Counted from the stretch's first letter, positions 4,768 through 51,765 are shown. The stretch is 64,000 nucleotides of DNA from Nitrosomonadales bacterium (GCA_036676355.1 JAKFDA010000085.1:14027-78026), one strand, 5' to 3'. Numbers and translations: made by a program. Notes: generated from the sequence alone by a model not told the origin.

Positions 4768-4876
4768 TCGCCGCCGCTTCCCCGTGCCTCACGCTTGCAT
4801 TGTTGTAAGGCGTTGCTGGTCAGGCGGCAGGAGTATACCGGACTACCCTCGGCGATTTGGCCACGACCTTGCAGCA

Positions 4877-4904
4877 AGAGACAGGTCCCTCAGGTGTAAG
4901 TTCA
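4877..4904 (-). promoter_or_regulatory. Candidate sigma-E-type (autoregulated) promoter for rpoE
   Basis: Minus strand reads tGAACTT-N16-TCTCT, about 105 nt upstream of the rpoE ATG. It resembles the GAACTT-N16/17-TCnnA RpoE/AlgU consensus. The -35 element overlaps the stop codon of the upstream ORF. Confidence 0.35.
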
Positions 4905-24880: not shown

Positions 24881-25072
24881 GATCGCTCCTTCACAAATCG
24901 CATCACTCCCCTTCTTTGGCCAGACTGGCCCACGACGCTATGCGAACCAAACGCATGCGGCGCAACGACAGTTTTGCCGTTCTGCGGCGAATTGCCGATA
25001 GGACCAAGGACCAATGTTCAGACCGGAGGACGCCGCCTATCGTTTTCGCGGTCATCCAACGAGGGGAACGGC

Positions 25073-30248: not shown

Positions 30249-30313
30249 CGTGCCTCCATGTATCGCGCGGCGCTCCGGTTTTTCATTGTCGAATAGGCGC
30301 GTGAACGCCGGCG

Positions 30314-31321: not shown

Positions 31322-31800
31322 AACCGTTCCTCCCGCTCGAAGTCCCGGTTCGGTGTGTGGATGGTATGCACGACGCCTGGCGATTCGCGTGTGGGCTCGG
31401 GATGTGTTTCTTCGGGCGCGCTCATCGTCGCAGGCGGTTCATCGGTCTGCGGCGGCAATCCCCGGCCGCGCCTGAAAACGCGCACCAGTGTCTCTTCCGC
31501 CTGCTCCCAATCGAGATAGGCGATGAACAACGCGATCGCCCACACCCAGTGCTGGAACAGTCCGAGCAGCGTCAGGGCGCTCACGAGTTCAGCCTGGCGC
31601 AGCTTCTTATGCTCGGCGCGATGCTTCGGAATCTCATGCAAACGCCACCCCACCATCAGCGCGATGATGATGATGATCAATAACAGCGGCAGCAGGATGT
31701 ACATCACCCAGTCCGCGTCGAGAATGGCGCGATAGAGACCGAACGGTTCGTTCGCGTAGTACCCGTCCGGGACGTCTTCCTTGTAGACATGGAAGAGCAT
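31318..31800 (-). CDS. DUF3302-like small membrane protein (YibI/YiaW-like)
   Basis: 160 aa. Two TM helices (ILLPLLLIIIIIALMVGW; LLGLFQHWVWAIALFIAYL) with HEIPKHRAEH between them. ATGA overlaps at both ends. Confidence 0.55.
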   Translation of the reverse strand: MLFHVYKEDVPDGYYANEPFGLYRAILDADWVMYILLPLLLIIIIIALMVGWRLHEIPKHRAEHKKLRQAELVSALTLLGLFQHWVWAIALFIAYLDWEQAEETLVRVFRRGRGLPPQTDEPPATMSAPEETHPEPTRESPGVVHTIHTPNRDFEREERL

Positions 31801-33161
31801 CAGAACCCTCCTCCCAGCGCCTTGTAATACTGGCTGCGCGCCACGAGTTGGTTCAGTCGCGCATCCGCCAGCGTCAATTCCGCGTTCAGCACCCGGATCG
31901 TTTGGGCGAGCACTTCGTATTTGCTGGTGCGGCCGACCAGATAACTTTTCTCGTCCAGGGCGAGCGCTTCCCTGCGGGCCGCGACTGCTTCCGCGGTCGC
32001 CACCGCTTGCCGATCTCCCGTATCGACGAGCACGAGCGCTTCATATGCCTCGCGGAACGCAGACGACACCACATACCGGTAGTGCGCGATGGCCTTTTGC
32101 CGCCGCGCCTCGGCGCCGGCGACTTTCCAGTCGATGGCGCCGGCATCGAATATCGGCCCGGCCAGACCCGCGGCCGCCTGCCAGAAGAACGGCATGCCGG
32201 TGACGAGCGCGGAGGACGACCCGATCCAGCCCGCAGCCAGCGAAATCGTCAGGCGCGGGTAGTACTCGGCGCGGATGCTGTCCAGGTCGGCGTGCGCCGC
32301 GCGCAGCAACTGTTCGGCTGAAGCCACGTCGGGACGGCGCAACAGCAGATCCGAATCGATTTCTCGCGGCGTGTCGGGAATACGCACCGCGGCCTGTTGC
32401 GTACGCGGCAATGCTTCAGCGATGTCGCGAGGGCTGCGACCGATCAGCAATGCCAGCGCGAGTTCCGTGCGTGCGATCGCCGCCTCCATCACTGGAATCT
32501 GCGCCGCGACCGTGGCGACTTCGGCAAGGCTCTGGCGATACGCCAGCGCGGTGCCGACCTGTGCCTTCCAGCGGCGGAATTCGAAATCCGCCACGGCCCT
32601 GAGGTTGTCATGCGTATCCCGGGTGATGGCGAGCTTGTTCTCCAAGTTAAGCAGCTGGAAATAAGTCTCGGCGACCGCTTGCGATATGGACAACTGCGTC
32701 GCGTCGCGCACATGTTCCGATGCGGACAACTGCGCGAGCGCCGCTTCGTTCAGGTTTTCGATACGGTCCCACAGATCGACCTCCCAGTTCAGCAGCGCGC
32801 CGATGCTCGTGACGGAGACGCGCTTGTCGAACTCCTCCTCCTGACCCAGCACCAACTGACGCCGGGACAACGTCGACTTGACCTGCCCGTCCACGCGGGG
32901 AAACAGCATCGCATGGGCAACGCCCGCGTTGGCGCGCGCTTCGGCGACGTTGGCCGCCGCCTTCGCCAGATCGTAGTTGTTGCGCAGCGCTTCCTCGATG
33001 AACCGATCGAGCACAGGATCACCGAAGGTTTGCCACCACCGCGAGTCGATGAGGATGCGTGCGCGCTCCGGCGGGAGGTCGAGTTGCGGGCGCACGTATG
33101 CGGTCGGCGTCGGCCCGCACCCCGCGCAAGCGGCCGCAGCCAGCCCCGCGATGACGCGCAT
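31800..33161 (-). CDS. Outer-membrane efflux lipoprotein (OMF, NodT family)
   Basis: Trimmed to MRVIAGLAAAACAGCGP (lipobox). WWQTFGDPVLDRFIEEALRNNYDLAKAAANVAEARA and the duplicated OEP repeats are classic NodT/OprM-family features. Confidence 0.85.
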   Translation of the reverse strand: MRVIAGLAAAACAGCGPTPTAYVRPQLDLPPERARILIDSRWWQTFGDPVLDRFIEEALRNNYDLAKAAANVAEARANAGVAHAMLFPRVDGQVKSTLSRRQLVLGQEEEFDKRVSVTSIGALLNWEVDLWDRIENLNEAALAQLSASEHVRDATQLSISQAVAETYFQLLNLENKLAITRDTHDNLRAVADFEFRRWKAQVGTALAYRQSLAEVATVAAQIPVMEAAIARTELALALLIGRSPRDIAEALPRTQQAAVRIPDTPREIDSDLLLRRPDVASAEQLLRAAHADLDSIRAEYYPRLTISLAAGWIGSSSALVTGMPFFWQAAAGLAGPIFDAGAIDWKVAGAEARRQKAIAHYRYVVSSAFREAYEALVLVDTGDRQAVATAEAVAARREALALDEKSYLVGRTSKYEVLAQTIRVLNAELTLADARLNQLVARSQYYKALGGGF

Positions 33162-33527
33162 CGCGATGCGGCACGAGTAGTTCTGCAGCGAACGCGAGGG
33201 CCGCCGATACGTCGATGCACCAGTTCGCACGAGTGAGGTTCCCGGGTTTGCGATGCGACATGCGTCGCTTCGCATCTGCCGCGCGCGTTCAGGGTAGTGC
33301 CGGCTTGCGGCCGCAACAATGAGACCTTCGTCCCATGAAGCGCGCCGCCGAAGGCGTGCGCGGGCCGAGGCATGCCCCGTTGCATTGGGACCAAGGCCCT
33401 ATGGCGATCGTTTTGGCGCACTCCTAGCATTCCGTACGCGCCGCCGATCCGACGTCAGCGCTCCACGGCGTGATCGGCGGGCGGATGCTGGGGACATGCG
33501 GTTGTGTGCGCCGCGGAGGGGGAAAGC

Positions 33528-34904
33528 ATGAATCGACGTGTACTTTATATGGCCATCGCTTGCGCACTAAGCGGCAATGCCGCCGCGCAAACCTCTGAGG
33601 ACATCAAATCCCAGCTCGATGATGCAATGCGTGTCATTCGCGAATTGCAGGAGCGCGTCAAGGCGCTCGAGCAGCAAGAGCATGCGCCCGTACCGGCCCC
33701 TTCATCGCCGACTGCCGCGCCCAGAGACCCCGCCACGCATGCCGAGAAAGAGGCGCCGGGCGTGAAAGGCGCGCGCGTGATCGCGCCGCAAAGCGCCCCG
33801 GAAGAAGGTGCTTGGGGCGGCGAAGCGCGACTGGAAATCAGCGGCAAGGTCCAGCTCGATTTCATCTACGACTTCGATCGCGTCGATCCGGATTGGAACG
33901 CAACCTTGCGGCCGTCCACCATCCCGGTGAACTGTCCGGGCGATCCGGGCTGCGGGGAGGACGGCGAGACCGTCTTCAGCGTGCGTCAGACTTCGCTCGG
34001 CTTCAAGGCGTTCGTCCCCACGACCGCGGGCGAGTTGAAAGCGGAGGTGAGTTTCGATCTGTTCTCCACAGGCGGCGGGCAAACATCGGCACGGCTGCTG
34101 AATGCATGGGGCGCCCTGGGCAACCGGATCGGGCTCGGACAGTACTACACCTTGTTCATGAATCAGGACGCGTTTCCCAATGTCGTCGATTACTGGGGAC
34201 CGAACGGCATGGTGTTCGTCCGCAATCCGCAGATCCGCTATCTCGCCTATGAAAAGGAGGGGCTGAAGCTCGCCTTCTCGCTCGAAGCGCCCAATGCGGC
34301 GATCGATACCGGCAAAGTAGCGGACATCGATCCGGCCTTGAACGTGCGCAGTCATACGCAATGGCCGGACGCCGTCGGCAAGCTGAGTTGGGATCAGGAC
34401 TGGGGGCACTTCCAGGTCGCCGGCGTTCTGCGCTCCGTGGGCTTCGAAACATTGGGCGACGACGTCGATTCAGACGAAGAACTGGGCTGGGGCGTGAACG
34501 TGAGCGGGTGGTTGAAGGTCGGAGCAAAGAATCGCCTCATCGGGCAAGTGGTATACGGCGAGGGGATCGCCAGTTACATGAACGACGGCGGCGTCGACCT
34601 CGCACCGAGTTCCAGCCTGAAGGCCGAGACCGTGAAGACGCTCGGTGCGTTCGTCTATTACGACCATTACTGGAACGACAAGTGGAGCAGTTCCGTCGGG
34701 GCGAGCATCCATCGCCAGGACAACACCGGCGGACAGCTTCCCACCGCATACAAGGAAGGCCTGTACGCGTCGGCCAACATCCTCTGGTATCCGGCGAAGA
34801 ACGTGCTGACCGGTGTTGAATTCCTCTGGGGTCGTCTGGAACAGAACGACGGCGAGTCCGGCGACGATTTTCGCGTGCAGTTCAGCGGCCAGTACAAGTA
34901 CTAA
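33528..34904 (+). CDS. DcaP-like outer-membrane porin (N-terminal coiled coil plus beta-barrel)
   Basis: Trimmed to ATG 33528 (GGAGGGGG RBS). Signal peptide, coiled coil IKSQLDDAMRVIRELQERVKALEQQ, Pro-rich linker, barrel ending FSGQYKY. Confidence 0.6.
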   Translation: MNRRVLYMAIACALSGNAAAQTSEDIKSQLDDAMRVIRELQERVKALEQQEHAPVPAPSSPTAAPRDPATHAEKEAPGVKGARVIAPQSAPEEGAWGGEARLEISGKVQLDFIYDFDRVDPDWNATLRPSTIPVNCPGDPGCGEDGETVFSVRQTSLGFKAFVPTTAGELKAEVSFDLFSTGGGQTSARLLNAWGALGNRIGLGQYYTLFMNQDAFPNVVDYWGPNGMVFVRNPQIRYLAYEKEGLKLAFSLEAPNAAIDTGKVADIDPALNVRSHTQWPDAVGKLSWDQDWGHFQVAGVLRSVGFETLGDDVDSDEELGWGVNVSGWLKVGAKNRLIGQVVYGEGIASYMNDGGVDLAPSSSLKAETVKTLGAFVYYDHYWNDKWSSSVGASIHRQDNTGGQLPTAYKEGLYASANILWYPAKNVLTGVEFLWGRLEQNDGESGDDFRVQFSGQYKY

Positions 34905-34932
34905 CGCCTCACCTCTTTGATCGGAGTCGCCT

Positions 34933-37194
34933 GTGTCCTTCACTCAAGCATTCCCGGTCGCCATCATCGATGAAGATTTCGAAGGCAAGCATGCGGCCGG
35001 TCGCGGCATGCGCCAGCTCGCAGCCGCCATCGAGAGCGAGGGCTTCCGCGTCGTGAGCGGCGTGAGCTATGCGGATGCGCAGCGGCTGGTCGATGTCATC
35101 AATACCGAGTCGTGCTGGCTCGTCTCCGTGGACGGCATCGAAGAAACCGAGGGCCAATGGAATCTGTTGGAAGAAGTGCTTGCCAAGAAGCGGCGACGGA
35201 ACAACCGCCTGCCGATTTTCCTGTTCGGCGATCAGCGCACCGCGGAGATGGTGCCGGCGAACGTGCTCAGGCACGCCAACGCTTTCATGGCCCTGTTCGA
35301 AGATCCGCCGGAGTTTCTGGCACGCACCATCTGCCGGGCGGCGCATATCTATCTCGAACGCCTTCCGCCGCCGATGTTCAAGGCGCTGATGGATTACACG
35401 TTGCATGGCGGGTATTCCTGGCACACCCCGGGTCATGGCGGCGGCGCAGGCTTTCGCAAAAGCCCGGTGGGGCAGCTCTTCTATCACTTCTTCGGTGAAA
35501 ACACGCTGCGCTCCGACATCTCCGTCTCGGTCGGTGCGCTCGGCTCCCTGCTCGACCACACGGGGCCGATTGCCGAAGGCGAACGCAATGCCGCGCGCAT
35601 TTTCGGCACCGACGAGACGCTTTTCGTGGTGGGCGGCACATCGACCGCGAACAAGATCGTGTGGCACGGCATGGTCGGCCGCAACGACCTGGTGCTGTGC
35701 GACCGCAACTGTCACAAGTCGATCCTGCATTCACTCATCATGACGGGCGCGACGCCGATCTACCTGATCCCGTCGCGCAACGGACTCGGCATCATCGGAC
35801 CCATTTCGCGCGACCAGTTCAGCGCGGAGTCGATCCGCATGAAGGTCGATGCCAGTCCGTTCGCCAAGGACACCACCGGCAACGTGCGGTTGATGGTGAT
35901 GACCAATTCCACCTATGACGGACTCTGCTACAACATCGACGCGATCAAGCAGTTGATCGGCGATTCGGTCGAGGTGCTGCACTTCGACGAGGCGTGGTAT
36001 GCCTACGCCAACTTCCACGAGTTCTACGACGGCTATCACGCCATTTCGTCGAACGACCCGGCGCGCGCGAAGAACGCGGTGACCTTCGCTACGCAATCGA
36101 CGCACAAGCTGCTGGCAGCGCTGTCGCAGGCGTCGATGATCCACATCCAGAACGCCGAGACGAAGCAACTGGACATGACGCGCTTCAACGACGCCTTCAT
36201 GATGCATACCTCCACCTCGCCGCAGTACGGGATCATCGCGTCCTGCGATGTGGCGGCGGCCATGATGGAACAGCCGGGCGGCCGCGCCCTCGTGCAGGAG
36301 ACCATCGACGAGGCGCTGAGCTTCCGCCGCGCCATGACGGCGGTGAAAGCGCAGATTCCGGAGACGACGTGGTGGTTCGACGTCTGGCAGCCGGAGGCGA
36401 TCGCGCAACAGCCCGTCGTCGACAGGGCAGCCTGGGTTTTGAAACCCGGCGATGCATGGCACGGTTTCACCGATCTTGCCGAGAACCACGTACTCGTCGA
36501 CCCCATCAAGGTGACCATTCTTTCGCCCGGCATGTCCGCGGACGGGACGATGCAGGAGCAAGGCATTCCCGCCGCCGTGATCACCAAGTTCCTCTCCTCG
36601 CGACGCATCGAGATCGAGAAAACCGGCTTGTATTCGTTCCTGGTGCTGTTCTCCTTCGGCATCACCAAAGGCAAGTGGAGCACGCTCCTCACCGAGTTGA
36701 TGAACTTCAAGGATCTCTACGACGCCAACGCCCCGCTCCGGCGCGCGCTGCCCGCATGGACGACGCTGCACGCGGACATCTACGGAAAGATGGGACTGAA
36801 GGATCTGTGCGACCACATCCATCAGGTGTACCGGGAAGATAACGTGCCGGAGGCGCAGAAGAACATGTACACCGTGCTGCCCGAAATGGCGATGCGTCCG
36901 GCCGATGCTTATGATCATCTCGTGCGCGGGCGCGTCGAAAGCGTCGAGATCGACCATCTGATGGGGCGGACGCTCGCGGTGATGATCGTGCCCTACCCGC
37001 CTGGCATTCCGCTGATCATGCCCGGCGAGCGCATCACGACCGCGACCAGGTCGATCCAGGACTACCTCCTCTACGCACGCGATTTTGACCGCAAATACCC
37101 CGGCTTCGAAACCGATATCCACGGCTTGCGCTTCGAGCACACATCCGAAGGGCGTCGTTACATGATCGACTGCATCGAGGAAGGAAGCGGGTGA
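34933..37194 (+). CDS. Wing-domain (AAT-fold) Orn/Lys/Arg decarboxylase, lysine-decarboxylase-like (CadA/LdcC/LdcA clade)
   Basis: 753 aa, GTG start with GGAG upstream. PLP-Lys context ATQSTHKLLAALSQASMIH...FMMHTSTSPQYGIIAS and C-terminus YPGFETDIHG resemble CadA/LdcC. Substrate was not determinable by eye. Confidence 0.85.
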   Translation: MSFTQAFPVAIIDEDFEGKHAAGRGMRQLAAAIESEGFRVVSGVSYADAQRLVDVINTESCWLVSVDGIEETEGQWNLLEEVLAKKRRRNNRLPIFLFGDQRTAEMVPANVLRHANAFMALFEDPPEFLARTICRAAHIYLERLPPPMFKALMDYTLHGGYSWHTPGHGGGAGFRKSPVGQLFYHFFGENTLRSDISVSVGALGSLLDHTGPIAEGERNAARIFGTDETLFVVGGTSTANKIVWHGMVGRNDLVLCDRNCHKSILHSLIMTGATPIYLIPSRNGLGIIGPISRDQFSAESIRMKVDASPFAKDTTGNVRLMVMTNSTYDGLCYNIDAIKQLIGDSVEVLHFDEAWYAYANFHEFYDGYHAISSNDPARAKNAVTFATQSTHKLLAALSQASMIHIQNAETKQLDMTRFNDAFMMHTSTSPQYGIIASCDVAAAMMEQPGGRALVQETIDEALSFRRAMTAVKAQIPETTWWFDVWQPEAIAQQPVVDRAAWVLKPGDAWHGFTDLAENHVLVDPIKVTILSPGMSADGTMQEQGIPAAVITKFLSSRRIEIEKTGLYSFLVLFSFGITKGKWSTLLTELMNFKDLYDANAPLRRALPAWTTLHADIYGKMGLKDLCDHIHQVYREDNVPEAQKNMYTVLPEMAMRPADAYDHLVRGRVESVEIDHLMGRTLAVMIVPYPPGIPLIMPGERITTATRSIQDYLLYARDFDRKYPGFETDIHGLRFEHTSEGRRYMIDCIEEGSG

Positions 37195-39542
37195 TGGATC
37201 CGCCGACCATTCCCGTTCCCTTTCATCGTCTGCTGAAGATTGTCGCGATCGCCGATCGCGAAGATCAGCAGGTGAAGGAATTGATCGAACACATCCGCGC
37301 CGAGAACTACCAGGTTGAGGTGACAGACAGCCTGGAACGCGACGTGTCCGAAGACGCCGCGATCGGCGCGTACATCATCCAGGTCGACGGGCAACGGCTG
37401 GAACCCGCGCGCGCACTCGCGCGTTCGGTGCGCGGCATCGGTTTCCGTACGCCGCTCTGGGCGCTTGCCGATTCGCATGGCATCTCCGACATCGCCGTGC
37501 TGGGCGGTCTCGGCGAAGTCGAAGGCTTCGTCTATCTGGGTCAGCAGACACCCGCCTTCTATGCCAAGCAGATCATCGTCAGCCTGGTGAAGTACGGAAG
37601 CAGCCTGCTGCCTCCCTTCTTCGGCGGTTTGGTGAGATACGACGCGGATGCGACCATCGCATTCGATTGTCCGGGACACCAGGGCGGGCAGTTCTATCGC
37701 AAATCGCCGCCCGGACAACTGTTCTTCAAGCACTTCGGCGAAAATATTTTCCGTAACGATCTGTGCAATGCCGACGTGGCTCTGGGCGACATGCTGATCC
37801 ACGAAGGCGCGGTGCTGGACGCGGAGTGTCACGCCGCGGAAGTATTCGGCGCTGATCAGACCTACTTCGTCCTCAACGGTACCAGCACATCGAACAAGAT
37901 CGTGACCGGCGCGGTGCTGCGTCAGGGCGATCTCGTGCTGTTCGACCGAAACAATCACAAGTCGCTGCACCAGGGCGCGCTGGTGCAGGCCGGCGCCATT
38001 CCCATCTTCCTACCGACTGCGCGCAACCCTTTCGGCATGATCGGCGCGGTGGATTGGGACGCGTGGGATGAAGACGCCCTGCGCCAGCGCATTCGCGACA
38101 ATCCGCTGATCGAGGATCAGGATCGCCACAGGGCCGAACGCCCCTTCCGCCTTGCGTGCATTCAGCTTGCGACGTACGACGGCACGATCTACAACGTGCG
38201 CAAGGTGCTGGAAAAGATCGGCCACCTCTGCGACTACGTGCTATGGGACGAGGCCTGGATCGGCTACAACGCCTTTCATCCGCTGTTCGACGACCACAGC
38301 CCGATGCGTCTCAAGGATCTGCCGCCCGAGATGCCGGGGCTGTTCTCGACCCAGTCGGTACACAAGCAGGGTGCGGGCTTCTCGCAAGCCTCACAAATTC
38401 ACAAGCGCGACGAGCATATCCATGGTCAGAAACGCTACATCGAACACAAGCGCTTCAACGAGTCGTTTCTGATCCACGCCTCCACCTCACCCTTCTATCC
38501 GCTGTTCGCGTCGCTGGACGTCAACGCAAAAGTGCATGAAGGCAAGGCGGGCGAGATGCTATGGGATCGCTGCATCGAACTGGGCATCGAGGCGCGCAAG
38601 AAATTGCGTCAGTTCGGCCGTCACTACGCGAAGAACGGCCGCGGGGCGGCCGAGCAGTGGTTCTTCGATCCTTTCGTGCCGGATGTCGTAACGATCCATG
38701 CGTCGAAATTCACCGACGACGCCATGAACGTTCACTGGGAAGACCTGCCGACAAAGGTGATCAAACGCGAACAGCAGTGCTGGCGCTTCGATCCCAAAGC
38801 GACCTGGCACGGCTATGCGGGCTACGCCGACGACTACGCCATGGTCGACCCCAACAAGCTGATGCTGCTCACGCCCGGAATCGATCGCCGGACGGGCGAA
38901 TACCTCGATTTCGGCGTTCCCGCAACGGTTGTCGCGAATCACCTGCGCGAGCAGCGCGTCGTGCCGGAGAAATGCGATCTGAACAGCATTCTCTTTCTAA
39001 TGACGCCTGCGGAGGACGAAAGCAAGCTGAATACGCTCATCGCCAAGCTGGTGAAGTTCAAGAACGCCTGGGACGAGGACATGAAGCTGGAATTGGTGCT
39101 GCCCACCATCTGTGGCAAGCATCCCGAGCGCTACGCGGGCTATACGCTTCGTCAGATCTGCAATGAGATGCACGCCTTCTACGCGAAGGCCAACATCAAG
39201 GAGTTGCAGCGCCTGTGCTTCCGCGCGACGAGCTTTCCGGAAATGGCGCGCCTGCCGCACGAGGCCTACCGCGCGCTGGTAGGCAACGATGTGGATTACG
39301 TGCCGCTCGATCAGACGAAAGGCCGCATCGCCGCGACACTCGCCCTGATCTACCCGCCCGGGATCGGCGTCATAGCGCCCGGCGAGCGTTGGGACGAACG
39401 GGCGAAACCGATGCTCGATTACTTCTTTGCCTTCGAGGAGTCCTTCAACCGCTTCCCCGGCTTCAACTACGAGGTACAGGGCGTCTATCAGGAGCACATC
39501 GACGGTCGCATCAGGTTCCACACCTACGTGGTGCGTGAGTAG
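37194..39542 (+). CDS. Wing-domain ornithine decarboxylase (SpeC/SpeF-like)
   Basis: About 782 aa. ATG 37194 overlaps the upstream TGA by 1 nt (alternative GTG at 37191). STQSVHKQGAGFSQASQIHKRDEHIHGQKRY...STSPFYPLFASLDVNA and DLNSILFLMTPAE closely track E. coli SpeF/SpeC as I remember them. Confidence 0.88.
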   Translation: MDPPTIPVPFHRLLKIVAIADREDQQVKELIEHIRAENYQVEVTDSLERDVSEDAAIGAYIIQVDGQRLEPARALARSVRGIGFRTPLWALADSHGISDIAVLGGLGEVEGFVYLGQQTPAFYAKQIIVSLVKYGSSLLPPFFGGLVRYDADATIAFDCPGHQGGQFYRKSPPGQLFFKHFGENIFRNDLCNADVALGDMLIHEGAVLDAECHAAEVFGADQTYFVLNGTSTSNKIVTGAVLRQGDLVLFDRNNHKSLHQGALVQAGAIPIFLPTARNPFGMIGAVDWDAWDEDALRQRIRDNPLIEDQDRHRAERPFRLACIQLATYDGTIYNVRKVLEKIGHLCDYVLWDEAWIGYNAFHPLFDDHSPMRLKDLPPEMPGLFSTQSVHKQGAGFSQASQIHKRDEHIHGQKRYIEHKRFNESFLIHASTSPFYPLFASLDVNAKVHEGKAGEMLWDRCIELGIEARKKLRQFGRHYAKNGRGAAEQWFFDPFVPDVVTIHASKFTDDAMNVHWEDLPTKVIKREQQCWRFDPKATWHGYAGYADDYAMVDPNKLMLLTPGIDRRTGEYLDFGVPATVVANHLREQRVVPEKCDLNSILFLMTPAEDESKLNTLIAKLVKFKNAWDEDMKLELVLPTICGKHPERYAGYTLRQICNEMHAFYAKANIKELQRLCFRATSFPEMARLPHEAYRALVGNDVDYVPLDQTKGRIAATLALIYPPGIGVIAPGERWDERAKPMLDYFFAFEESFNRFPGFNYEVQGVYQEHIDGRIRFHTYVVRE

Positions 39543-39574
39543 CGCCGTCACGTCACACAGCAGAGGTTCGCATC

Positions 39575-41878
39575 ATGCTCAATCCCGTAACCGGCCCGCT
39601 TCGCCACCGCGTTCTGATCGTGGACGATGATCTGGCGGAACTCGACACGGCGCTCGGTCGCGCGTCGGAAAGCCTGGCGCAGGCGCTCGAAGCGCGCAAT
39701 CTCGAAGTGGTGCGCGCGCTTTCGTGCGAGGATGGCCTGGCGGTAGTGGGTTCGGACGCATCGCTGCGCGCTGTGCTGCTCGACTGGAATGTGGGCGGCG
39801 CATCGGAGAACGCGCACGGCAAAGCGACCGCCCTGCTCTACAAGCTGCGCGAACGGCATCCGAAGGCACCCGTCTTTCTGCTGTCGGACCGCGAACAGGC
39901 GAAGGGAACGATCACGATCGAAGTCGCCGAGATGATCGACGAGTTCGTCTGGTTACTGGAAGACACTTCGGAGTTCGTGGCGGGACGGGTAATGGCGGCG
40001 ATACGCCGCTACGTGTCGCAGGTGCTGCCGCCGTTCGCGCGCGCACTGGCCGACTACGCAATGCTGCGCGAGCACTCGTGGTCTGCGCCCGGTCACCAGG
40101 GCGGCATCGCCTTTACCAAACTTCCCGTCGGGCGCGCGTTCTTCGACTTTCTGGGCGAAAACGTGTTCCGTGTCGACATGGGCATCGAACGTGGGGCGCT
40201 CGGGTCGCTGCTCGATCACACCGGGCCGGTTGCCGGCAGCGAAGCCTACGCGGCACGCGTCTTCGGCGCGCATCGCAGCTACTCGGGCATCGTCGGCACG
40301 TCGGGATCGAACCGCAGCATCATGCAGGCGTGCATGAAGGAAGGCGATCTCGTCATCCTCGATCGCAATTGCCACAAGTCCATCGAACAGGGCCTCATGC
40401 TGACCGGCGCGCGGCCGGTGTACATGGTGCCGCGACGTAATCGCTACGGCATCATCGGGCCCATCGCGCCTTCCGAGATGGTGCCTGAGACCCTTCGCGC
40501 GAAAGCGGAAGCCGGCGCCCTGACGAAGCAGATCGCCGATCAGAAACCTGTTTACGCGGTACTGACAAACAGCACGTACGACGGTCTCTGCTACAACGCG
40601 GTACGTGCACAGGCATTGCTCGAACAGTCGTGCGACCGCATTCATTTCGATGAAGCGTGGTACGGCTACGCGCGCTTCAACCCGATGTACGAAAACCACT
40701 ACGCCATGCGCGGCGATCCGGCGACGCACACCGGCCCCACGATATTCGCCACGCATTCCACGCACAAACTGCTCGCGGCGCTGTCGCAAGCGTCCTACAT
40801 CCATGTGCGCGACGGACGGGGCGCCATCGATCATCACCGCTTCAATCAGGCGTACATGATGCACACGAGCACCTCGCCGCTTTACGCCATCATCGCCTCG
40901 AACGACATCGCTTCCGCGATGATGGACGGCAGTGGCGGCCGGTCGTTGACGCAGGAGGCGATCCGGGAGGCCGTCGATTTCCGCCAAGTCCTGACGCGCG
41001 TGCTGCGCACGTTCAACGACAAGAACGACTGGTTCTTCAAACCGTGGAACGTCGAGACGGTGAGGGATCCGTCCGGCGGGCGCGAAGTGTCGTTCGCGGA
41101 TGCGCCTGCCGAACTGCTATGTGACAGTCAGGAGCCGTGGAAGCTGCGCTCCGGCGACACATGGCACGGATTCAGCGACATCGCCAACGACTGGTGCATG
41201 CTCGATCCGATCAAGGTCAGCATCCTGACGCCCGGCATGGGCGAGGATGGCGAACTGGAACGGACCGGCGTACCGGCGGCGCTCGTCAACGCCTACTTCA
41301 ACCGCTTCGGCATTGTGCCGACACGCGTCACCGACTTCCAGGTGATGTTCCTGTTCTCGATCGGCATCACCAAAGGCAAGTGGGGCACGCTGCTGACCAA
41401 TCTGCTCGCCTTCAAGCGCCACTACGACGGCAACTCGCCAGTCGCCGAAGTGCTGCCCGAGATCGCCACGCTCTATCCCGAGCGTTATCGCGACACCGGT
41501 CTGCACGATCTGGGCGATCAGCTGTTCGAGTATCTGCGCGAGAACCGTCCCGACCGATTACTGAATGCGGCCTACGAAACCATCCCGCACGCCGACATGA
41601 CGCCGCGACACGCATACGAGCGTCTCGTCGCCGGCGACGCGGAGCCGGTGCCGATCGAGGCGCTGATGAATCGCACAGCGGCCAACGCCGTCATGCCCTA
41701 CCCGCCCGGCATCCCGATGCTGATGTCCGGAGAAAACTTCGGCGGCTCCGATTCGCCACAGATTGGCTACCTCGCCGGCCTGCAGGACCGTGAACAGCGC
41801 TTTCCCGGCTTTGCGCATGTCACCGAAGGCATCGAAATGATCAACGGAACATACCACGTGCTGTGCGTGCAGAAATGA
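39575..41878 (+). CDS. adiA: Biodegradative-type arginine decarboxylase
   Basis: 767 aa. ATHSTHKLLAALSQASYIHVRDGRGAIDHHRFNQAYMMHTSTSPLYAIIASND, WFFKPWN, DPIKVSILTPGMGEDGELERTGVPAALV, PYPPGIPMLMSGENFG and C-terminal YHVLCVQK parallel E. coli AdiA almost motif for motif. Confidence 0.9.
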   Translation: MLNPVTGPLRHRVLIVDDDLAELDTALGRASESLAQALEARNLEVVRALSCEDGLAVVGSDASLRAVLLDWNVGGASENAHGKATALLYKLRERHPKAPVFLLSDREQAKGTITIEVAEMIDEFVWLLEDTSEFVAGRVMAAIRRYVSQVLPPFARALADYAMLREHSWSAPGHQGGIAFTKLPVGRAFFDFLGENVFRVDMGIERGALGSLLDHTGPVAGSEAYAARVFGAHRSYSGIVGTSGSNRSIMQACMKEGDLVILDRNCHKSIEQGLMLTGARPVYMVPRRNRYGIIGPIAPSEMVPETLRAKAEAGALTKQIADQKPVYAVLTNSTYDGLCYNAVRAQALLEQSCDRIHFDEAWYGYARFNPMYENHYAMRGDPATHTGPTIFATHSTHKLLAALSQASYIHVRDGRGAIDHHRFNQAYMMHTSTSPLYAIIASNDIASAMMDGSGGRSLTQEAIREAVDFRQVLTRVLRTFNDKNDWFFKPWNVETVRDPSGGREVSFADAPAELLCDSQEPWKLRSGDTWHGFSDIANDWCMLDPIKVSILTPGMGEDGELERTGVPAALVNAYFNRFGIVPTRVTDFQVMFLFSIGITKGKWGTLLTNLLAFKRHYDGNSPVAEVLPEIATLYPERYRDTGLHDLGDQLFEYLRENRPDRLLNAAYETIPHADMTPRHAYERLVAGDAEPVPIEALMNRTAANAVMPYPPGIPMLMSGENFGGSDSPQIGYLAGLQDREQRFPGFAHVTEGIEMINGTYHVLCVQK

Positions 41879-41917
41879 TCCCGCGCACCTAGCCATAACG
41901 CCGCGACGAGGCTCCTC

Positions 41918-43300
41918 ATGGAAACCCGCAAAAAGATGAACCTGATGCAGCTCACCGTACTGGTGGCTGTGAACATGATGGGCTCGGGCATCATCATGCT
42001 GCCGACGAACATGGCACAGGTCGGCGCGATCTCGCTGTTGTCGTGGATCGTCACGGCACTGGGCTCCATGGCGATCGCCTACGGCTTCGCGCAGGCGGGA
42101 CTGTTCAATCCTCGCCCGGGCGGCATGGCGGCATACGCCGAGGACGCCTACGGCAAACCGGGCTACTTCATCGTCTTCCTGCTGTATTTCTTTTCGCTGG
42201 CCATCGGCAACGTCGCCATCGCCATTTCGGCGGTGGGCTACCTCGCGACGTTCATGCCGTGGCTGTCTTCCACGCCAATCGCCACTTGCGTCGGCGTCAT
42301 CGTGCTGATCTGGCTGACGACCGTCGCGAACTTCGGCGGCCCTTCCATCACCGGGCGCATCGGTCAGGTCACGGTATGGGGCGTGATCATTCCGGTAGCC
42401 GGCCTGTCGATCATCGGCTGGTTCTGGTTCAGCGGCGAAACCTTCTCGCAGGCGTGGAATCCGCACAACAAGAGTGTACTCGAGGGCATGGGTTCGAGCA
42501 TCGCCCTGACGTTGTGGGCGTTCCTCGGCATGGAATCGGCGGCGCAGAACTCCGACGCGGTGGAAAATCCAAAACGCAATGTGCCGCTCGCCTGCATGCT
42601 GGGCACGCTCGGCGCGGCGGTGATCTACGTGTTGTCGACTACCGTGATCCAGGGGATTGTGCCGAACGCCGAGCTGGCTAATTCGACGGGCCCCTTCGGG
42701 CTCGCGTACGCGAAAATGTTCAACCCCGCGATCGGCTCCATCATCATGGCACTGGCGATCCTCGCATGCCTCGGCTCGCTGCTCGGCTGGCAGTTCACCA
42801 TTTCGCAGACAGCGAAAACCGCCGCCGGCGAACGCATGTTCCCCGCGTTCTTCGCCAAGGAGAACAGCATGGGCGCGCCGATCATGGGCCTGACGGTGAT
42901 GGGCGTGGTGCAGACGGTGATGGCGCTGACCACGATCTCGCCGACTCTGAGCGAGCAGTTCGGCGCGCTCGTCAGTCTGGCCGTGGTGACTAACGTGCTG
43001 CCCTACATCATCGCGCTGTCCGCGCTCGCCGTGATGATGCGAACGGTCGGGGTCGCGCAGAACGTGTACAACCGCAACATCGCCGTCGCGATCGTCGCGA
43101 TGCTTTACTCCACATATGCCATTTACGCGTCCGGCAAGGACGCGGTTCTCGGCGGCATGATCGTGCTGGCGATCGCGTTCATCATCTACGGATTCCTCGC
43201 CCCCAGATTTGTATCGGCCACGCCCGTGCGCGGGGCCGCCCCTGCACCGAAGGAGACACAATGGACGCCCTATCCTACCGACACAGCCGGTCAGCATTAG
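41918..43300 (+). CDS. potE: APC-family basic amino acid/polyamine antiporter, PotE-like
   Basis: 460 aa. MNLMQLTVLVAVNMMGSGIIMLPTNMAQVGAISLLSWIVTALGSMA, FGGPSITGRIGQVTVWGVIIPVAGLSIIGWFWFS and ENPKRNVPLA are much closer to my memory of PotE than of AdiC or CadB. Confidence 0.85.
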   Translation: METRKKMNLMQLTVLVAVNMMGSGIIMLPTNMAQVGAISLLSWIVTALGSMAIAYGFAQAGLFNPRPGGMAAYAEDAYGKPGYFIVFLLYFFSLAIGNVAIAISAVGYLATFMPWLSSTPIATCVGVIVLIWLTTVANFGGPSITGRIGQVTVWGVIIPVAGLSIIGWFWFSGETFSQAWNPHNKSVLEGMGSSIALTLWAFLGMESAAQNSDAVENPKRNVPLACMLGTLGAAVIYVLSTTVIQGIVPNAELANSTGPFGLAYAKMFNPAIGSIIMALAILACLGSLLGWQFTISQTAKTAAGERMFPAFFAKENSMGAPIMGLTVMGVVQTVMALTTISPTLSEQFGALVSLAVVTNVLPYIIALSALAVMMRTVGVAQNVYNRNIAVAIVAMLYSTYAIYASGKDAVLGGMIVLAIAFIIYGFLAPRFVSATPVRGAAPAPKETQWTPYPTDTAGQH

Positions 43301-44199
43301 GACGCGTGGCCGCAGGCGTGATCGCGGCATCACTAGCGTTGCTCGCCGCGCTGCCGGCGTCCGCGCAGACAATCGATCGCATCAAGCAGTCCGGCAAGAT
43401 GACGCTCGGCTACAGCGTCCAGGCGCGACCCTTTTCCTATAACGACGCGGCCGGCAATCCCATCGGCTACACCATCGAGCTGTGCCAGAAAATCGTGGAC
43501 GCCGCGCGAGCGGACCTCGGCGTGCAGCAACTGGCCGTCACGTTCGTTCCGGTCACGCTGGCCAATGCGTTGAGCGCAGTGCAACAAGGCCAGGTCGACC
43601 TGCTCTGCGACCCGCACATTGCAACCGTGGCGTCGCGTAAGCAGGTTTCGTATTCGATCTCGGTCTTTCCCAGCGGCGTCGGCGTGCTGGTGCATCGGAA
43701 CGCCTCGGCCCGGCTTACGGAGGTCCTATCCGGGCGCGAGCCGCCCCGGCGGCCGCAATGGCGGGCAAGCGCCTATCAGACGCTGCAGCAGAGCACCCTC
43801 GCCGTGGTGAGCGGTTCGCCGACCGAACGCCTCGTGAACGAACGGATGAAGGAGCTTCAACTGAACGCGAAGGTGGTCCCGGTGATCGATTTCGTCAACG
43901 GCGTCGCACAGGTCGCGGACCGGCGCGTCGATGCGTTCTTCGGCGACAAGGCACTGCTGCTCGATACGGCCAAGCGCAGCAAGGCGGCTGCGGATCTGCT
44001 GGTGCTGGACCGCTACTTTTCCTATCAGGCGGGTGCATTGGCGCTGGCGCGTGACGACAACGACTTCCGTCTTTTAGTCGATCGTGCATTGAGCCATCTG
44101 TTCTTTTCCGGCGAGTGGGGCGATATCTACTCCAAGTGGTTCGGCCCGCCCAACGAAGGCACGCTGAACTTTTTCCAACTGAACGTATTGCGCGAGTGA
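43261..44199 (+). CDS. Periplasmic amino-acid-binding protein (SBP_bac_3 family), no cognate permease or ATPase nearby
   Basis: 312 aa. Signal peptide ...LLAALPASAQ, IDRIKQSGKMTLGY, typical type-3 SBP. ATG 43261 overlaps potE by 40 nt. An in-frame GTG at 43306 is an alternative start. Confidence 0.75.
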   Translation: MDALSYRHSRSALGRVAAGVIAASLALLAALPASAQTIDRIKQSGKMTLGYSVQARPFSYNDAAGNPIGYTIELCQKIVDAARADLGVQQLAVTFVPVTLANALSAVQQGQVDLLCDPHIATVASRKQVSYSISVFPSGVGVLVHRNASARLTEVLSGREPPRRPQWRASAYQTLQQSTLAVVSGSPTERLVNERMKELQLNAKVVPVIDFVNGVAQVADRRVDAFFGDKALLLDTAKRSKAAADLLVLDRYFSYQAGALALARDDNDFRLLVDRALSHLFFSGEWGDIYSKWFGPPNEGTLNFFQLNVLRE

Positions 44200-46529: not shown

Positions 46530-46919
46530 TCAATCGTTCGGCGCCTCGCATCCTCCAAGAATCCATGAGATGGCATCGAGCAGCGCCTGATCGTCAACCG
46601 GTTTACGCAGAAAGAACATAGCGCCCTGAGCGCGCGCGCGATCGCGTATCTCGTCGTCGTCGCGCGCGGACAAGGCAATGACCGGAAGACGAAGACCGCG
46701 CGCGTTTATCATGGCTTGCACTTCAAGGCCGTTAAGGCGCGGCAGCGTCATGTCGAGCAATACGCAGCCTCTCGAATGGATTGTCACGTCATCGAGAAAG
46801 CTCTGCGCATCCGAATAGGCCTGCGCCGGCAGTTCGGCCGCGCGCATCAGGCGCATCAACCCGTTACGGACCGATTGATCGTCTTCGATGATGTAGATCA
46901 GGGGTTGGGAGGCGCTCAC
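46530..46919 (-). CDS. Single-domain response regulator (receiver only)
   Basis: 129 aa. IYIIEDD...VLLDMTLP...ALSA...FLRKP is the CheY-like residue set. Confidence 0.8.
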   Translation of the reverse strand: MSASQPLIYIIEDDQSVRNGLMRLMRAAELPAQAYSDAQSFLDDVTIHSRGCVLLDMTLPRLNGLEVQAMINARGLRLPVIALSARDDDEIRDRARAQGAMFFLRKPVDDQALLDAISWILGGCEAPND

Positions 46920-46988
46920 GATGGAACCTGAAGCGGTGTGCGGTTAACGCTACGCGCTTCGGCTCACCATCAATATTGGACTATGGTC

Positions 46989-47702
46989 CTAGGCGCTGTG
47001 GCGCCTGGCCATCCGCTCGACGTCGCCGTTTCGCATGTAGCCCGATGCCCTCGGAAAGGCGTTTGTCGTGGAGGCGCCGGCGTCGGCGCAGATCAGCACC
47101 AGGCCGGCGACGGTGGAGGCTTCAGTCTTTTCCATGACGCGGCTGCGATGCGCCTTCACGGTCTTCTCGGCAATGCCGAGATCCGCCGCGATCTGCTTGT
47201 TGAGCTTGCCAAGCAGGACGCCATGCAGCACATCCCGCTCCCTGCGCGAAAGCGTTGCAAGTTTGCGCTGCGCCGATGCTTTCGATTCTTCCGCGCCCCT
47301 CGTTTCGCGATAACGCGCAATCGCAGCACGTATGGTTCGCAGCAACAGGTCGTCATCGACGGGTTTGAGCAGAAAATCGACCGCCCCATGTTTCATCGCA
47401 TCGACACTGCTCGGCACGTCGCCGAATCCGGTGAGGAACACGACCGGCAGGCGGCATTGCCGCTCGCGCATGCGTGCGAATGCGCACAATCCGTTCACGC
47501 CGGCCATCTGCAGATCGAGGAGCACACATCCGATGTCGTCGGGCCGTATGGCGTCAAGAAAATCCTCGGCGGACGCGTAGCTTTGCGCCGTCCATCCTGC
47601 GGAACGCATCAGCCGTTCGAGGCTCGCGCGCACGCTCTCGTCGTCGTCAACGATGAAAACGGTTTCCGTATCAATCGGCTTTCGTAGCGGATCCGTCGAC
47701 AT
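46989..47702 (-). CDS. FixJ/NarL-family response regulator (REC plus LuxR HTH)
   Basis: Track ORF trimmed to ATG 47702 (MSTDPLRKPIDTETVFIVDDDESVR). LLDLQMAGVNG. HTH LSRRERDVLHGVLLGKLNKQIAADLGIAEKTVKAHRSRVMEK. Confidence 0.85.
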   Translation of the reverse strand: MSTDPLRKPIDTETVFIVDDDESVRASLERLMRSAGWTAQSYASAEDFLDAIRPDDIGCVLLDLQMAGVNGLCAFARMRERQCRLPVVFLTGFGDVPSSVDAMKHGAVDFLLKPVDDDLLLRTIRAAIARYRETRGAEESKASAQRKLATLSRRERDVLHGVLLGKLNKQIAADLGIAEKTVKAHRSRVMEKTEASTVAGLVLICADAGASTTNAFPRASGYMRNGDVERMARRHSA

Positions 47703-48981
47703 GGGGAGTCTCCTTCGGCAGATTGAAACGGAAGATCGCGCCGCCTTGCGGATCGATCTCGGCCCAGATGGCGCCATGATGAGCGTCGATGATGGAGCGG
47801 CATACCGGAAGGCCCAATCCCATCCCTTGCGTTTTAGTCGTCCAGAACGGCTCGAATATTTTTTCCAACCTTTCCGGCGTGAGCTGGTTGCCGGAGTCGT
47901 GCACCGAGCAATGAAACGACGCGTCGCTGCGCACTTCCACAAACAATCGTCTGTCTTCCTCACCCGTGCCTTGCATCGCTTCCAGCGCGTTGATGATCAG
48001 GTTGATGAGCACCTGCTGCATTTGCGCCCTGTCGACATGCACCAGGCAGCCCGGCTCGAGCGCGGCCCGCACGTCCACGCGCTGCGCCTGGGTATTCATG
48101 TTCAGCATGGCGAGAACCTCCTGCACAAGCTGAGACATGTCCACCCATTCACGCTCGCTCTGGCGCTTGCGCATCATGGCGCGCAATCCGCTGATAATCG
48201 CCCCGGCGCGCTTATCGTCGCGCACGATATCCTGCAGGATGGCTGCGATGTCGTTGCCGGCATCCTGTTGCCGCGCGAGGAAGCGCAATCCGGCCTGCGC
48301 ATTCGCGAGTATCGCGGCCAACGGTTGGGTCAGCTCATGCGCCAGCGAGGCAGCAAGCTCGCCCGCCACGCCGATGCGCGCCAGGCGCATGAGTTGTTCC
48401 TGCATGCACTGCTGCATCAGCCAGCTCTCCTGCCGTGCGAGAGCACTGGCCAGTATGCTGCCGAACAACTGCATGCGGGTAATGACTTCGTAGGACCATG
48501 TGCGCGGCGCACGGACCGTGGAAACGGAGAACGCCCCGATCACGGTGCCATCCGCGATCAGCGGCACGGATAACAGCGATCGCACGCCCAACCGCTCGTA
48601 GTCCGCATGATCCGCGGCGGCGGCGTCAGGCAGGTCTTCGAGCGAGTCGAATATGACCGGACTGCCGTGTCGCAGCATGGCGTAACTCCAGGGGAACACG
48701 CCCTCATAGCCTTTGCGGTGGATCTCCTTGCGCCCGGGCCTCGCCCATGTGTGCGAGACAAAGAACTCGGTCTTGTTGAGAATTTTGACGACTGAACTGC
48801 GGTCGGCGCCGAGATGCAGCACCAGTCGGCTCAACCAGTGCTCGATTTCGCTATCCACGTCGGCAGGTGATACGCGTACGAAGGCCTGGGCGAATTCCGC
48901 GACGAAATGCTCCGAGCTTAGCGGGGGATTACCGGTGTCGTCCTGAATAACGGCAGCCGGCTTGATCGAGTGTGATCGCAT
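47671..48981 (-). CDS. Cytoplasmic GAF-domain sensor histidine kinase
   Basis: 436 aa, no TM. GAF-like N-half (...SLLSVPLIADGTVIGAFSV), H-box LAHELTQPL, N box NLIINALEA, G boxes DSGNQL / GMGLGL. 32-nt overlap with the regulator gene. Confidence 0.85.
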   Translation of the reverse strand: MRSHSIKPAAVIQDDTGNPPLSSEHFVAEFAQAFVRVSPADVDSEIEHWLSRLVLHLGADRSSVVKILNKTEFFVSHTWARPGRKEIHRKGYEGVFPWSYAMLRHGSPVIFDSLEDLPDAAAADHADYERLGVRSLLSVPLIADGTVIGAFSVSTVRAPRTWSYEVITRMQLFGSILASALARQESWLMQQCMQEQLMRLARIGVAGELAASLAHELTQPLAAILANAQAGLRFLARQQDAGNDIAAILQDIVRDDKRAGAIISGLRAMMRKRQSEREWVDMSQLVQEVLAMLNMNTQAQRVDVRAALEPGCLVHVDRAQMQQVLINLIINALEAMQGTGEEDRRLFVEVRSDASFHCSVHDSGNQLTPERLEKIFEPFWTTKTQGMGLGLPVCRSIIDAHHGAIWAEIDPQGGAIFRFNLPKETPHVDGSATKAD

Positions 48982-50272: not shown

Positions 50273-50532
50273 ACGGTTCGCTCCGAAGGCGACGCAAATC
50301 ATCGGCAGGCGCCTACCCCGGCCCGGCAATGCTTCCGCCGATTCCACACAGCGCAAACAAGCTTACTGCCACGTCATCGAAGTCAGACATAGGGCTATGG
50401 TCGCATTGCTCCGCGTTTCGCAGGTCACTAGGCTGCGCTAGTAGCCGTTCGAGCGACGGCTGCAGGGAACTCAATGGCCGCAGGAGACCGCGATGGCAAG
50501 CGTTCCGAAACAAACGACTAAGCAACGGGAGC

Positions 50533-50961: not shown

Positions 50962-50976
50962 GTAGAGGACCAGCTC

Positions 50977-51706: not shown

Positions 51707-51765
51707 TCCGGGCGCTCCAGCGGCATATCGAAACCTCGTAGCCGATTATTTGCGCAGAGGCGCTT

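Follow-up and report, generated by a model that had tools for sequence, protein, structure and literature searches.

Can three different basic amino acid decarboxylases share a single antiporter, and do their genes form one unit where they lie side by side? These questions are raised by a 64,000-nucleotide stretch of DNA from a Nitrosomonadales bacterium, a soil betaproteobacterium (GCA_036676355.1, JAKFDA010000085.1:14027-78026; hereafter the window, GC content ~62%), in which a porin gene, three decarboxylase genes and a gene for a PotE-like antiporter follow each other closely. The locus is chromosomal, with lepA, plsX-fab genes, rne, uvrB and cysIJ-type genes on its flanks. In E. coli, as was correctly pointed out in an earlier reading of the window from its sequence alone (the sequence-only reading), cadBA, speF-potE and adiA-adiY-adiC are separate loci with their own regulators. 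The same reading took the window cluster for a consolidated super-operon, which held in part: the genes do form one tightly spaced unit, but the arrangement is not a one-off and proved to be the largest variant of a widespread modular family, in which a solute-binding protein (SBP) recurs beside the antiporter. Our preferred explanation, held with moderate confidence, is that this single unit specifies a system spanning the envelope, in which decarboxylation of basic amino acids consumes protons and is coupled to antiport.

Open reading frame (ORF) calling recovered the five co-directional genes from porin to antiporter at 33528-43300 with the spacing claimed previously (28, -4/-1, 32 and 39 nt). 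The boundary drawn after the antiporter was wrong, however, as the unit comprises at least six genes, with a co-directional SBP gene overlapping the 3' end of potE. This gene starts at an ATG preceded by an AAGGAG ribosome-binding site, encodes 312 residues and overlaps potE by 40 nt, and the same overlap was found in related loci L001 and L091. Internal interruptions of the unit were also sought: terminator-like sites were at background level (9, compared with 8.9 expected from shuffled sequences), and a consensus scan identified no sigma-70-like promoter sites across the operon region, with matches not above those in shuffles. The close spacing is consistent with a single transcription unit, which would run from 33528 to 44199 and may extend to 46479. 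The DUF3300 gene is possibly co-transcribed with the operon and the DUF2950 gene is possibly the final gene of the unit (Table 1).

All three decarboxylases matched PF03709, PF01276 and PF03711 above gathering score, representing the wing, major pyridoxal 5'-phosphate (PLP) and C-terminal domains, and the three PLP-lysine contexts quoted in the sequence-only reading are present verbatim in their translations, where the S-x-H-K motif reads QSTHK, QSVHK and HSTHK. Pairwise identity among the three enzymes is 31-40%. A neighbour-joining tree was built from 172 sequences (100 bootstraps on a representative subset) with E. coli CadA, LdcC, AdiA, SpeC and SpeF and P. aeruginosa LdcA as references, and the LdcA lysine decarboxylase subfamily was defined as in Carriel et al. 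2018. The enzymes fell into three different subfamilies of lysine, arginine and ornithine decarboxylases (LAOdc), each with 100/100 support, and are not recent paralogues; together with NCBIfam scores and identities, the tree upheld the earlier assignments as Ldc-like, ornithine decarboxylase (ODC)-like and AdiA-like. For decarboxylase 1, the top solved structure was P. aeruginosa LdcA (6q6i, 965 bits; next match, 594). It is 58% identical to this enzyme and 38-42% identical to AdiA, CadA and LdcC, and it scored below every NCBIfam curated cutoff. Its clade, referred to here as LdcA2, is sister to the P. aeruginosa LdcA clade (55% identity between clades), with joint support of 100/100 that excludes LdcI/C, Adc and Odc. 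By this placement, decarboxylase 1 is a probable lysine decarboxylase.

Decarboxylase 2 passed the NCBIfam ODC subfamily NF010092 (901 against a cutoff of 794) and would be neither SpeF nor SpeC specifically, because its score for the SpeF-specific TIGR04301 (880) lies under the cutoff of 1310. Its identity to SpeF is 53% and to SpeC 52%; it is sister to both (100/100) and is 76% identical to the speC-annotated ODC adjoining potE on S. meliloti megaplasmids. S. meliloti Odc1, encoded beside a putative putrescine/ornithine antiporter on pSymA, has been reported to be ornithine-specific (PMC10385936). Decarboxylase 3 exceeded the cutoff of the NCBIfam AdiA equivalog NF011603 (1206.5 against 1167), matched PDB entries 5xx1 and 2vyc with 1082 and 1076 bits, and grouped with E. 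coli AdiA (60% identity; 100/100).

The antiporter matched Pfam AA_permease_2 and the PotE equivalog NF007938 (665.8 against 409), fell just under the cutoff of the stricter TIGR04299 (554.7 against 560), and is 54% identical to E. coli PotE, compared with 36% to AdiC and 35% to CadB. These scores and identities confirm that the sole exchanger is PotE-like rather than AdiC- or CadB-like. Of the PotE substrate-site residues reported by Kashiwagi et al. 2000, Glu77, Trp201, Glu207, Trp292 and Tyr425 are all kept and Glu433 is replaced by Val. The positions that discriminate PotE from AdiC and CadB are likewise PotE-like (Glu77, Ser/Leu at AdiC 96/97, Leu205 and Ala357). PotE-clade antiporters with an SBP were found paired with many decarboxylase sets, including that of L089, in which LdcA2-PotE-SBP is accompanied by a convergent AdiA and no ODC, which speaks against an antiporter restricted to ornithine. 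The window antiporter likely exchanges both ornithine/putrescine and lysine/cadaverine. In Kashiwagi's work of 1992, E. coli PotE vesicles could reportedly be loaded with ornithine or lysine.

The SBP belongs to family 3 and carries a signal peptide. Its nearest solved structure, a glutamate/aspartate-binding protein (2ia4), is distant (E 5e-25). When 102 family members were aligned with E. coli ArgT, HisJ and GltI and compared at the ligand-contact residues of ArgT, a conserved Arg was seen one position off ArgT Arg77 (alpha-carboxylate) and an Asp aligns with Asp161 (alpha-ammonium); the family also has a conserved insert of ~19 residues. Wherever sequence of a related locus was available, PotE is adjoined by, or fused to, an SBP, whose gene is intact or frameshifted; loci that at first seemed to have none also carry one with a frameshift. 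Split SBP genes occur in L024, L028, L037 and L017, and in L092 (S. meliloti RCAM1115 plasmid p_1) a frameshift-split SBP gene, unannotated in the record, lies past potE at 11861-12695. Such splits may reflect pseudogenes or errors of long-read assembly.

In 19 of 63 loci, potE runs on into the SBP gene as a single frame, with a hydrophobic linker between the two, and these fusions occur in Paraburkholderia, Crenobacter, Variovorax, two Rhizobium species and metagenome-assembled genomes (MAGs) of Cellvibrio and Spongiibacteraceae, among other lineages. Among database proteins, 38 of the 120 nearest homologues of the window antiporter also carry PF00497; all but one of these are 728-762 residues long (37/38), the other being a 558-residue partial sequence, and those with a source name are annotated solely as 'putrescine-ornithine antiporter'. 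In homologue P0270, the linker forms a 13th hydrophobic segment (residues 441-474), so that the SBP domain would face the periplasm. The recurrence of the fusion in several lineages argues for joint action of PotE and SBP. An AlphaFold2 model of a fused homologue (37-sequence alignment; mean predicted local distance difference test score 65, predicted template modelling score 0.41) had a confident SBP domain and a poor transporter and linker, and was uninformative on docking. Full-text literature searches on fused binding proteins and APC transporters retrieved no description of an APC antiporter with a paired or fused binding protein.

Relatives of the cluster were collected by an ODC scan restricted to one genome per species, which gave 80 loci, and by look-ups of LdcA2 homologues, which added three. 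Across ~85 related loci, the recurrent core is ODC-PotE-SBP, found in Burkholderiales, Rhizobiaceae, Acidobacteriota, Gemmatimonadota and other lineages, and the other decarboxylases and the porin are variable add-ons. The layout is Porin-LdcA-ODC-PotE-SBP in Comamonadaceae-like Burkholderiales, LdcA2-ODC-PotE-SBP with a distant APC permease in Rhizobium and Sinorhizobium (the SMa0682-odc1-potE locus), and ODC-PotE~SBP-X8 in Paraburkholderia. Gemmatimonadota and Gammaproteobacteria MAGs have X9-ODC-PotE-SBP-X8 with a second, AdiC-like antiporter. The window layout, Porin-LdcA2-ODC-AdiA-PotE-SBP, was found in L001, L047, L053 and L091, and the isolate Variovorax sp. dw_308 (L018) has ODC-AdiA-PotE-SBP-X8 on a contig that begins at ODC.

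Two uncharacterised decarboxylase clades among these add-ons, X8 and X9, group with AdiA, with X9 sister to AdiA and X8 outside that pair; for X8 and X9, this observation concerns Paraburkholderia loci L005, L007, L009, L014, L015 and L019. One possible member of X8 is the Burkholderia sp. AIU 395 'Ldc', reported to fall within the Adc cluster (PMC6257575), in which case the Paraburkholderia ODC-PotE~SBP-X8 clusters would be ornithine plus lysine systems. Between MAGs and genomes that bear the labels Burkholderiales, Rhizobiaceae, Acidobacteriota, Gemmatimonadota, Myxococcota and Actinomycetes (L001-L080), ODC identity is 74-86%. This is unusually high for such distances and suggests that the module has spread horizontally, that it is strongly constrained, or that some contigs were mis-binned.

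The leading gene was correctly described before as a DcaP-like porin (Pfam PF19577 DcaP 7.7e-16, 58.6 bits against a cutoff of 27; Porin_2 1.6e-7). The protein carries a signal peptide and an N-terminal helical, coiled-coil-like segment, SEDIKSQLDDAMRVIRELQERVKALEQQ, which is retained among orthologues. Porin orthologues lie before the first decarboxylase gene in ~18 Burkholderiales loci and share an N-terminal QSNEELK..LDQALKTIEDLQ.RV.

Comparison of upstream regions identified an 18-bp palindrome, ATnGGACYWWRGTCCnAT, with two 7-bp arms and a 2-bp spacer. NarL/GerE-type regulators typically have sites of such a 7-2-7 layout. With up to 3 mismatches, the pattern ATNGGACYWWRGTCCNAT has 5 matches in the window compared with 0.87 expected, a number reached in 0 of 100 shuffles, and two of the matches lie between the porin gene and its divergent neighbour, with a -10-like TAGCAT ~25 nt past the second. 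With up to 2 mismatches, the palindrome was found upstream of the first cluster gene in 8 of 79 regions against 0.045 in shuffles, and in two more loci once start coordinates had been corrected. The loci with a palindrome before the first cluster gene include L001, L034, L053, L046, L020, L026, L030, L038 and L058, and in L038 it also precedes a cax homologue. A first version of the motif, GGGACCNNGGTCCC, was discarded: it showed no window-wide enrichment (3 matches, 2.83 expected), and its matches before the ODC start in five Paraburkholderia loci were merely the start-codon region GTGACCATGGTCCC.

The sequence-only reading had reported no regulator, which is true of the operon itself, but a signalling trio (a GAF-HisKA-HATPase kinase with a FixL-like core, a REC-GerE regulator and a REC-only protein) lies 2.3-4.8 kb downstream, after the DUF3300 and DUF2950 genes, in addition to the palindromes upstream of the porin. 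The ORF of the REC-GerE gene reaches 47963, and its true start is probably just below the kinase stop. In 11 loci, REC-GerE homologues are found close to the cluster; in L036, L070, L074 and L075, homologues of both kinase and regulator directly precede the porin in divergent orientation; and L001, the closest relative, has a truncated N-terminal kinase fragment divergent from the porin. REC-GerE is a candidate transcription factor. A direct link between palindrome and two-component system was considered and dropped, as L001 supports it but L036, L070 and L075, with an adjacent system and no site, do not.

Homologues of CadC, AdiY or SpeFL better than E = 1 were not found in the window by tblastn, and Rfam at gathering thresholds gave one tRNA alone in the window and no element in the operon region. 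The earlier statement that there is no room for a leader ORF was not strictly correct, since the upstream region of 252 nt contains a 70-codon ORF (33319-33531) with 20 arginines and an ATGA overlap with the porin start codon. This ORF is probably a chance ORF of GC-rich DNA, because it is absent from L001, and with no Rfam element present either, a sensory leader or riboswitch was rejected.

Table 1. Positions of the operon genes, palindromes and neighbouring genes within the window.
Feature	Position	Strand	Remarks
Palindrome copy	24998..25015		upstream of orf224 and the Ca2+/H+-exchanger-like gene
cax-like (Na_Ca_ex) exchanger	25703-26800		Ca2+/H+-exchanger-like
Palindrome site 1, operator-like	33319..33336		ATGAGACCTTCGTCCCAT; in the 252-nt OEP/porin divergent intergenic region
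Palindrome site 2, operator-like	33385..33402		TTGGGACCAAGGCCCTAT; ends 125 nt before the porin ATG
DcaP-family porin	33528-34904	+	ATG preceded by GGAGGGGG; alternative GTG start 33504
Decarboxylase 1, LdcA-related wing-domain PLP enzyme (clade LdcA2)	34933-37194	+	
Decarboxylase 2, SpeC/SpeF-type long ODC	37194-39542	+	alternative GTG start 37191
Decarboxylase 3, AdiA-type biodegradative arginine decarboxylase orthologue	39575-41878	+	
PotE-clade APC basic amino acid/polyamine antiporter	41918-43300	+	~25-residue C-terminal tail
Family-3 SBP, signal peptide	43261-44199	+	Pfam SBP_bac_3 8.1e-21
DUF3300 secreted protein	44230-45558	+	Pfam PF11737 4.8e-89; starts 30 nt past the SBP gene
DUF2950 protein	45571-46479	+	Pfam PF11453 4.3e-111; 12 nt past DUF3300
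REC-only response-regulator receiver	46530..46919	-	Pfam Response_reg 9.9e-21
Palindrome copy	46975-46992		56 nt upstream of the REC-only gene start
REC + GerE/LuxR-type response regulator	~46989..47660	-	Response_reg 5.3e-25, GerE 2.3e-16
GAF-HisKA-HATPase sensor kinase, FixL-like kinase core	47671..48981	-	cytoplasmic
Palindrome copy	50389..50406		near the Asp-Al_Ex / SulP-STAS / PPK2 gene group
SulP-STAS	51766-53439		
PPK2	53214-54260		

The analysis shows what the genes are, to which subfamilies they belong, that they are spaced as in an operon, that the module is conserved, that PotE and SBP are fused in relatives and that the operator is enriched. Which substrates are used, which way and in what ratio they are exchanged, what the SBP does, whether acid induces the genes and which regulator acts on them are inferred in the following scheme. 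Amino acids would enter through the outer membrane by way of the DcaP-type porin. The SBP would physically partner the PotE-clade antiporter, most likely by capturing substrate and handing it over, and the antiporter would bring external amino acid in and move internal diamine out. In the cytoplasm, each of the three decarboxylases would use one proton per turnover, with the LdcA-related enzyme probably converting lysine to cadaverine, ODC converting ornithine to putrescine and the AdiA orthologue converting arginine to agmatine. The 18-bp palindrome upstream of the porin probably controls expression, and the neighbouring GAF-kinase/LuxR-type system is a candidate regulator.

Several points weigh against this scheme. 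Clade LdcA2 has no characterised member, and S. meliloti SMa0682 has been described merely as an 'Arg/Lys/Orn decarboxylase' (PMC10385936). The LAOdc family is known for substrate shifts, as with the AIU 395 Ldc inside the Adc cluster (PMC6257575) and Rv2531c, a glutamate decarboxylase (PMC13506015). Acid induction was not seen for P. aeruginosa LdcA (PMC6257575), and an S. meliloti odc1 mutant grew normally at pH 5.5 (PMC10385936). In the SBP, the canonical Ser/Thr alpha-carboxylate contacts and the side-chain-binding residues are not kept. The pocket residues of the antiporter equal those of E. coli PotE and are the same in one-, two- and three-decarboxylase loci, including ODC-only clusters, and the pocket bears no sign of adaptation to arginine/agmatine, so that one exchanger for three pairs is offered here as a hypothesis. 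In X9-ODC-PotE-SBP-X8, another three-decarboxylase layout, the AdiC-like second antiporter accompanies the extra enzyme, indicating that evolution has often supplied a dedicated exchanger. Finally, the palindrome is missing at three of the four loci in which the two-component system abuts the porin (L036, L070 and L075).

Some of these points would be accommodated if the genes were co-regulated without sharing transport, with the antiporter (and SBP) serving ornithine/putrescine only, and with exchangers for lysine/cadaverine and arginine/agmatine located elsewhere or those amines not exported. The strictly PotE-like pocket would fit such an arrangement, as would the dedicated AdiC-like antiporters alongside X8 enzymes in other layouts, the additional distant APC permease encoded shortly before the LdcA2 gene in the rhizobial and L089 loci, and the distant APC permease 2.3 kb downstream in L047. 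However, L089 pairs PotE and SBP with LdcA2 and AdiA in the absence of ODC, PotE-family antiporters with dual ornithine/lysine specificity are known (PMC6257575), and no second APC antiporter was found within the 64-kb window, to which the search was confined, a restriction that counts against our own scheme. Beyond the window, exact-sequence look-ups gave no match for decarboxylase 1, and the AdiA protein was found on two short Logan contigs only. Separate transport is unlikely in our view, if worth keeping in sight. A role unrelated to acid, such as production, export or recycling of polyamines under micro-oxia, oxidative or envelope stress or in symbiosis, with incidental proton use, appears rather improbable. 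It would agree with the listing of the S. meliloti orthologues SMa0680 and SMa0682 as FixJ-activated (PMC13327599), with their induction in a tolC mutant (PMC2912261), with the unaffected odc1 mutant mentioned above, and with a nearby kinase with a FixL-like core and FixJ-like regulators. Conversely, AdiA orthologues and the pairing of decarboxylase with antiporter are hallmarks of biodegradative, acid-linked systems, and the neighbouring genes (cation/proton exchanger, SulP, PPK2 and, in L089, carbonic anhydrase) fit pH/ion homeostasis.

It is still less probable that cadaverine, putrescine and agmatine feed carbon and nitrogen catabolism, like the product of P. aeruginosa LdcA under ArgR, with porin, SBP and transporter devoted to net uptake. 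The nearest characterised relative of decarboxylase 1 is indeed that catabolic LdcA (PMC6257575), and an SBP usually marks high-affinity uptake, but agmatinase, transaminase and gamma-glutamylation genes were absent among the window genes scanned against Pfam, and the transporter falls within the precursor/product antiporter clade. The three-domain architecture common to all three enzymes is what simple paralogy, with three duplicates acting on one substrate, would predict, yet their low mutual identity and their grouping with different reference subfamilies largely refute it, and we consider it very improbable. The envelope-spanning decarboxylation/antiport system is accordingly the explanation we retain. 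A broader proposal is made only tentatively, as we rather doubt that it will hold in full: the antiporter with its SBP, free or fused, may be the first binding-protein-dependent APC precursor/product exchanger, acting as a shared hub for lysine-, ornithine- and arginine-type decarboxylases inside a ~30-kb pH/ion-homeostasis regulon marked by the 18-bp palindrome.

Among known systems, the three-component lysine/ornithine decarboxylation system of Lactobacillus saerimneri 30a comes close in principle. According to Romano et al. 2013, as related in PMC6257575 and PMC8928434, its antiporter exchanges both ornithine/putrescine and lysine/cadaverine, and more than one wing-domain LAOdc of different substrates is clustered there with a single PotE-family antiporter, as here. 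The window differs in its three enzymes including an AdiA orthologue, its Gram-negative host, its porin and its SBP. With the E. coli modules it shares related protein families, at the SpeF, AdiA and PotE identities given above, and decarboxylation coupled to precursor/product antiport. Unlike E. coli, where three loci each have their own antiporter and regulator, the window has one operon and one antiporter, no CadC, AdiY or SpeFL homologue, a lysine-type enzyme that is LdcA-like rather than CadA-like, and an added porin and SBP. The S. meliloti pSymA locus SMa0682-SMa0680(odc1)-potE represents a two-decarboxylase version, with an LdcA2-type enzyme followed by ODC, PotE and SBP, and a review has pointed to the rhizobial locus as putatively serving acid resistance (PMC10385936). 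AdiA and a porin are both missing there; the locus is megaplasmid-borne, has an apparently frameshifted SBP gene in RCAM1115 and is reported to be FixJ-regulated. In P. aeruginosa ldcA-ldcB (PA1818-PA1819), which encodes the closest characterised relative of decarboxylase 1, a decarboxylase gene is likewise followed by an APA-family antiporter gene, but the partner is CadB-like, there is a single enzyme, control is by ArgR without acid induction (PMC6257575), and the window enzyme belongs to the sister clade.

For the SBP, parallels are found in TRAP and TTT transporters and the SBP-fused ABC importers GlnPQ and OpuA, in which an SBP and a membrane transporter are linked genetically and, in many cases, covalently. 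By analogy, the window system may work like TRAP/TTT systems, but its partner is an APC-superfamily permease instead of the DctQM or TctAB membrane subunits, and it is thus not a member of either. Each protein family, and the principle of several decarboxylases with one antiporter (in Lactobacillus), was already known. New are the triple-enzyme, single-antiporter arrangement with a leading porin, its membership of a widespread modular family, the obligatory and often fused binding protein, and the putative conserved operator. Decarboxylase/antiporter acid resistance is known almost wholly from enterobacteria and lactic acid bacteria, as one enzyme, one antiporter and one regulator; this locus and its ~85 relatives show that a different, modular design is in use among bacteria of soil and rhizosphere, which include Burkholderiales, rhizobia, Acidobacteriota and Gemmatimonadota. 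If the SBP does feed the antiporter, the pair would constitute a new class of SBP-dependent secondary transporter, and such feeding would explain function at the low amino acid concentrations of soil. The design also makes it possible to test directly if a single APA antiporter can handle three substrate/product pairs, and cultured carriers of related clusters include Variovorax sp. dw_308, Paraburkholderia phymatum, P. caribensis, Crenobacter oryzisoli and S. meliloti. Fused proteins of ~750 residues labelled solely as antiporters point to a systematic annotation gap.

The surroundings of the cluster were compared by tblastn of window genes against the related loci, counting matches within 10 kb of the cluster; clustering of flanks by greedy longest-ORF calls was dropped, as long shadow ORFs in GC-rich DNA confounded it. 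Homologues of cax, SulP-STAS, PPK2, DUF3300 and DUF2950 recurred in 10-16 loci from distant lineages, and on S. meliloti pSymA cax and ppk2 homologues lie near the module. DUF3300 occupies an equivalent position in L001 and L091 and has a homologue within that distance in 16 loci, and a DUF2950 homologue is near the cluster in 11. These recurrent neighbours hint at a larger pH/ion-homeostasis gene set, and the five palindromes, each near a gene start, suggest a ~30-kb regulon.

Further genes nearby deserve mention. At 28410-33275, on the minus strand and divergent from the porin, lies an efflux-like set encoding an OEP/NodT outer-membrane factor, a 160-residue protein without a Pfam match, an HlyD-type adaptor and a large DUF1538 membrane protein; this set and the porin have a common intergenic region that holds both upstream palindromes, and HlyD-type adaptor genes also adjoin the cluster in S. 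meliloti and L089. In L089, a beta-carbonic anhydrase gene (Pro_CA, 4467-5138) and a DUF3300 gene adjoin the LdcA2-PotE-SBP/AdiA cluster as well. Together with the SulP transporters, the carbonic anhydrase hints that CO2/bicarbonate handling is tied to decarboxylation. At 50194-51741 of the window, two adjacent ORFs of ~255 residues each, perhaps the two halves of a single gene or a split gene, were found; the second has an Asp-Al_Ex domain of the aspartate:alanine exchanger family, another exchanger family coupled to decarboxylation.

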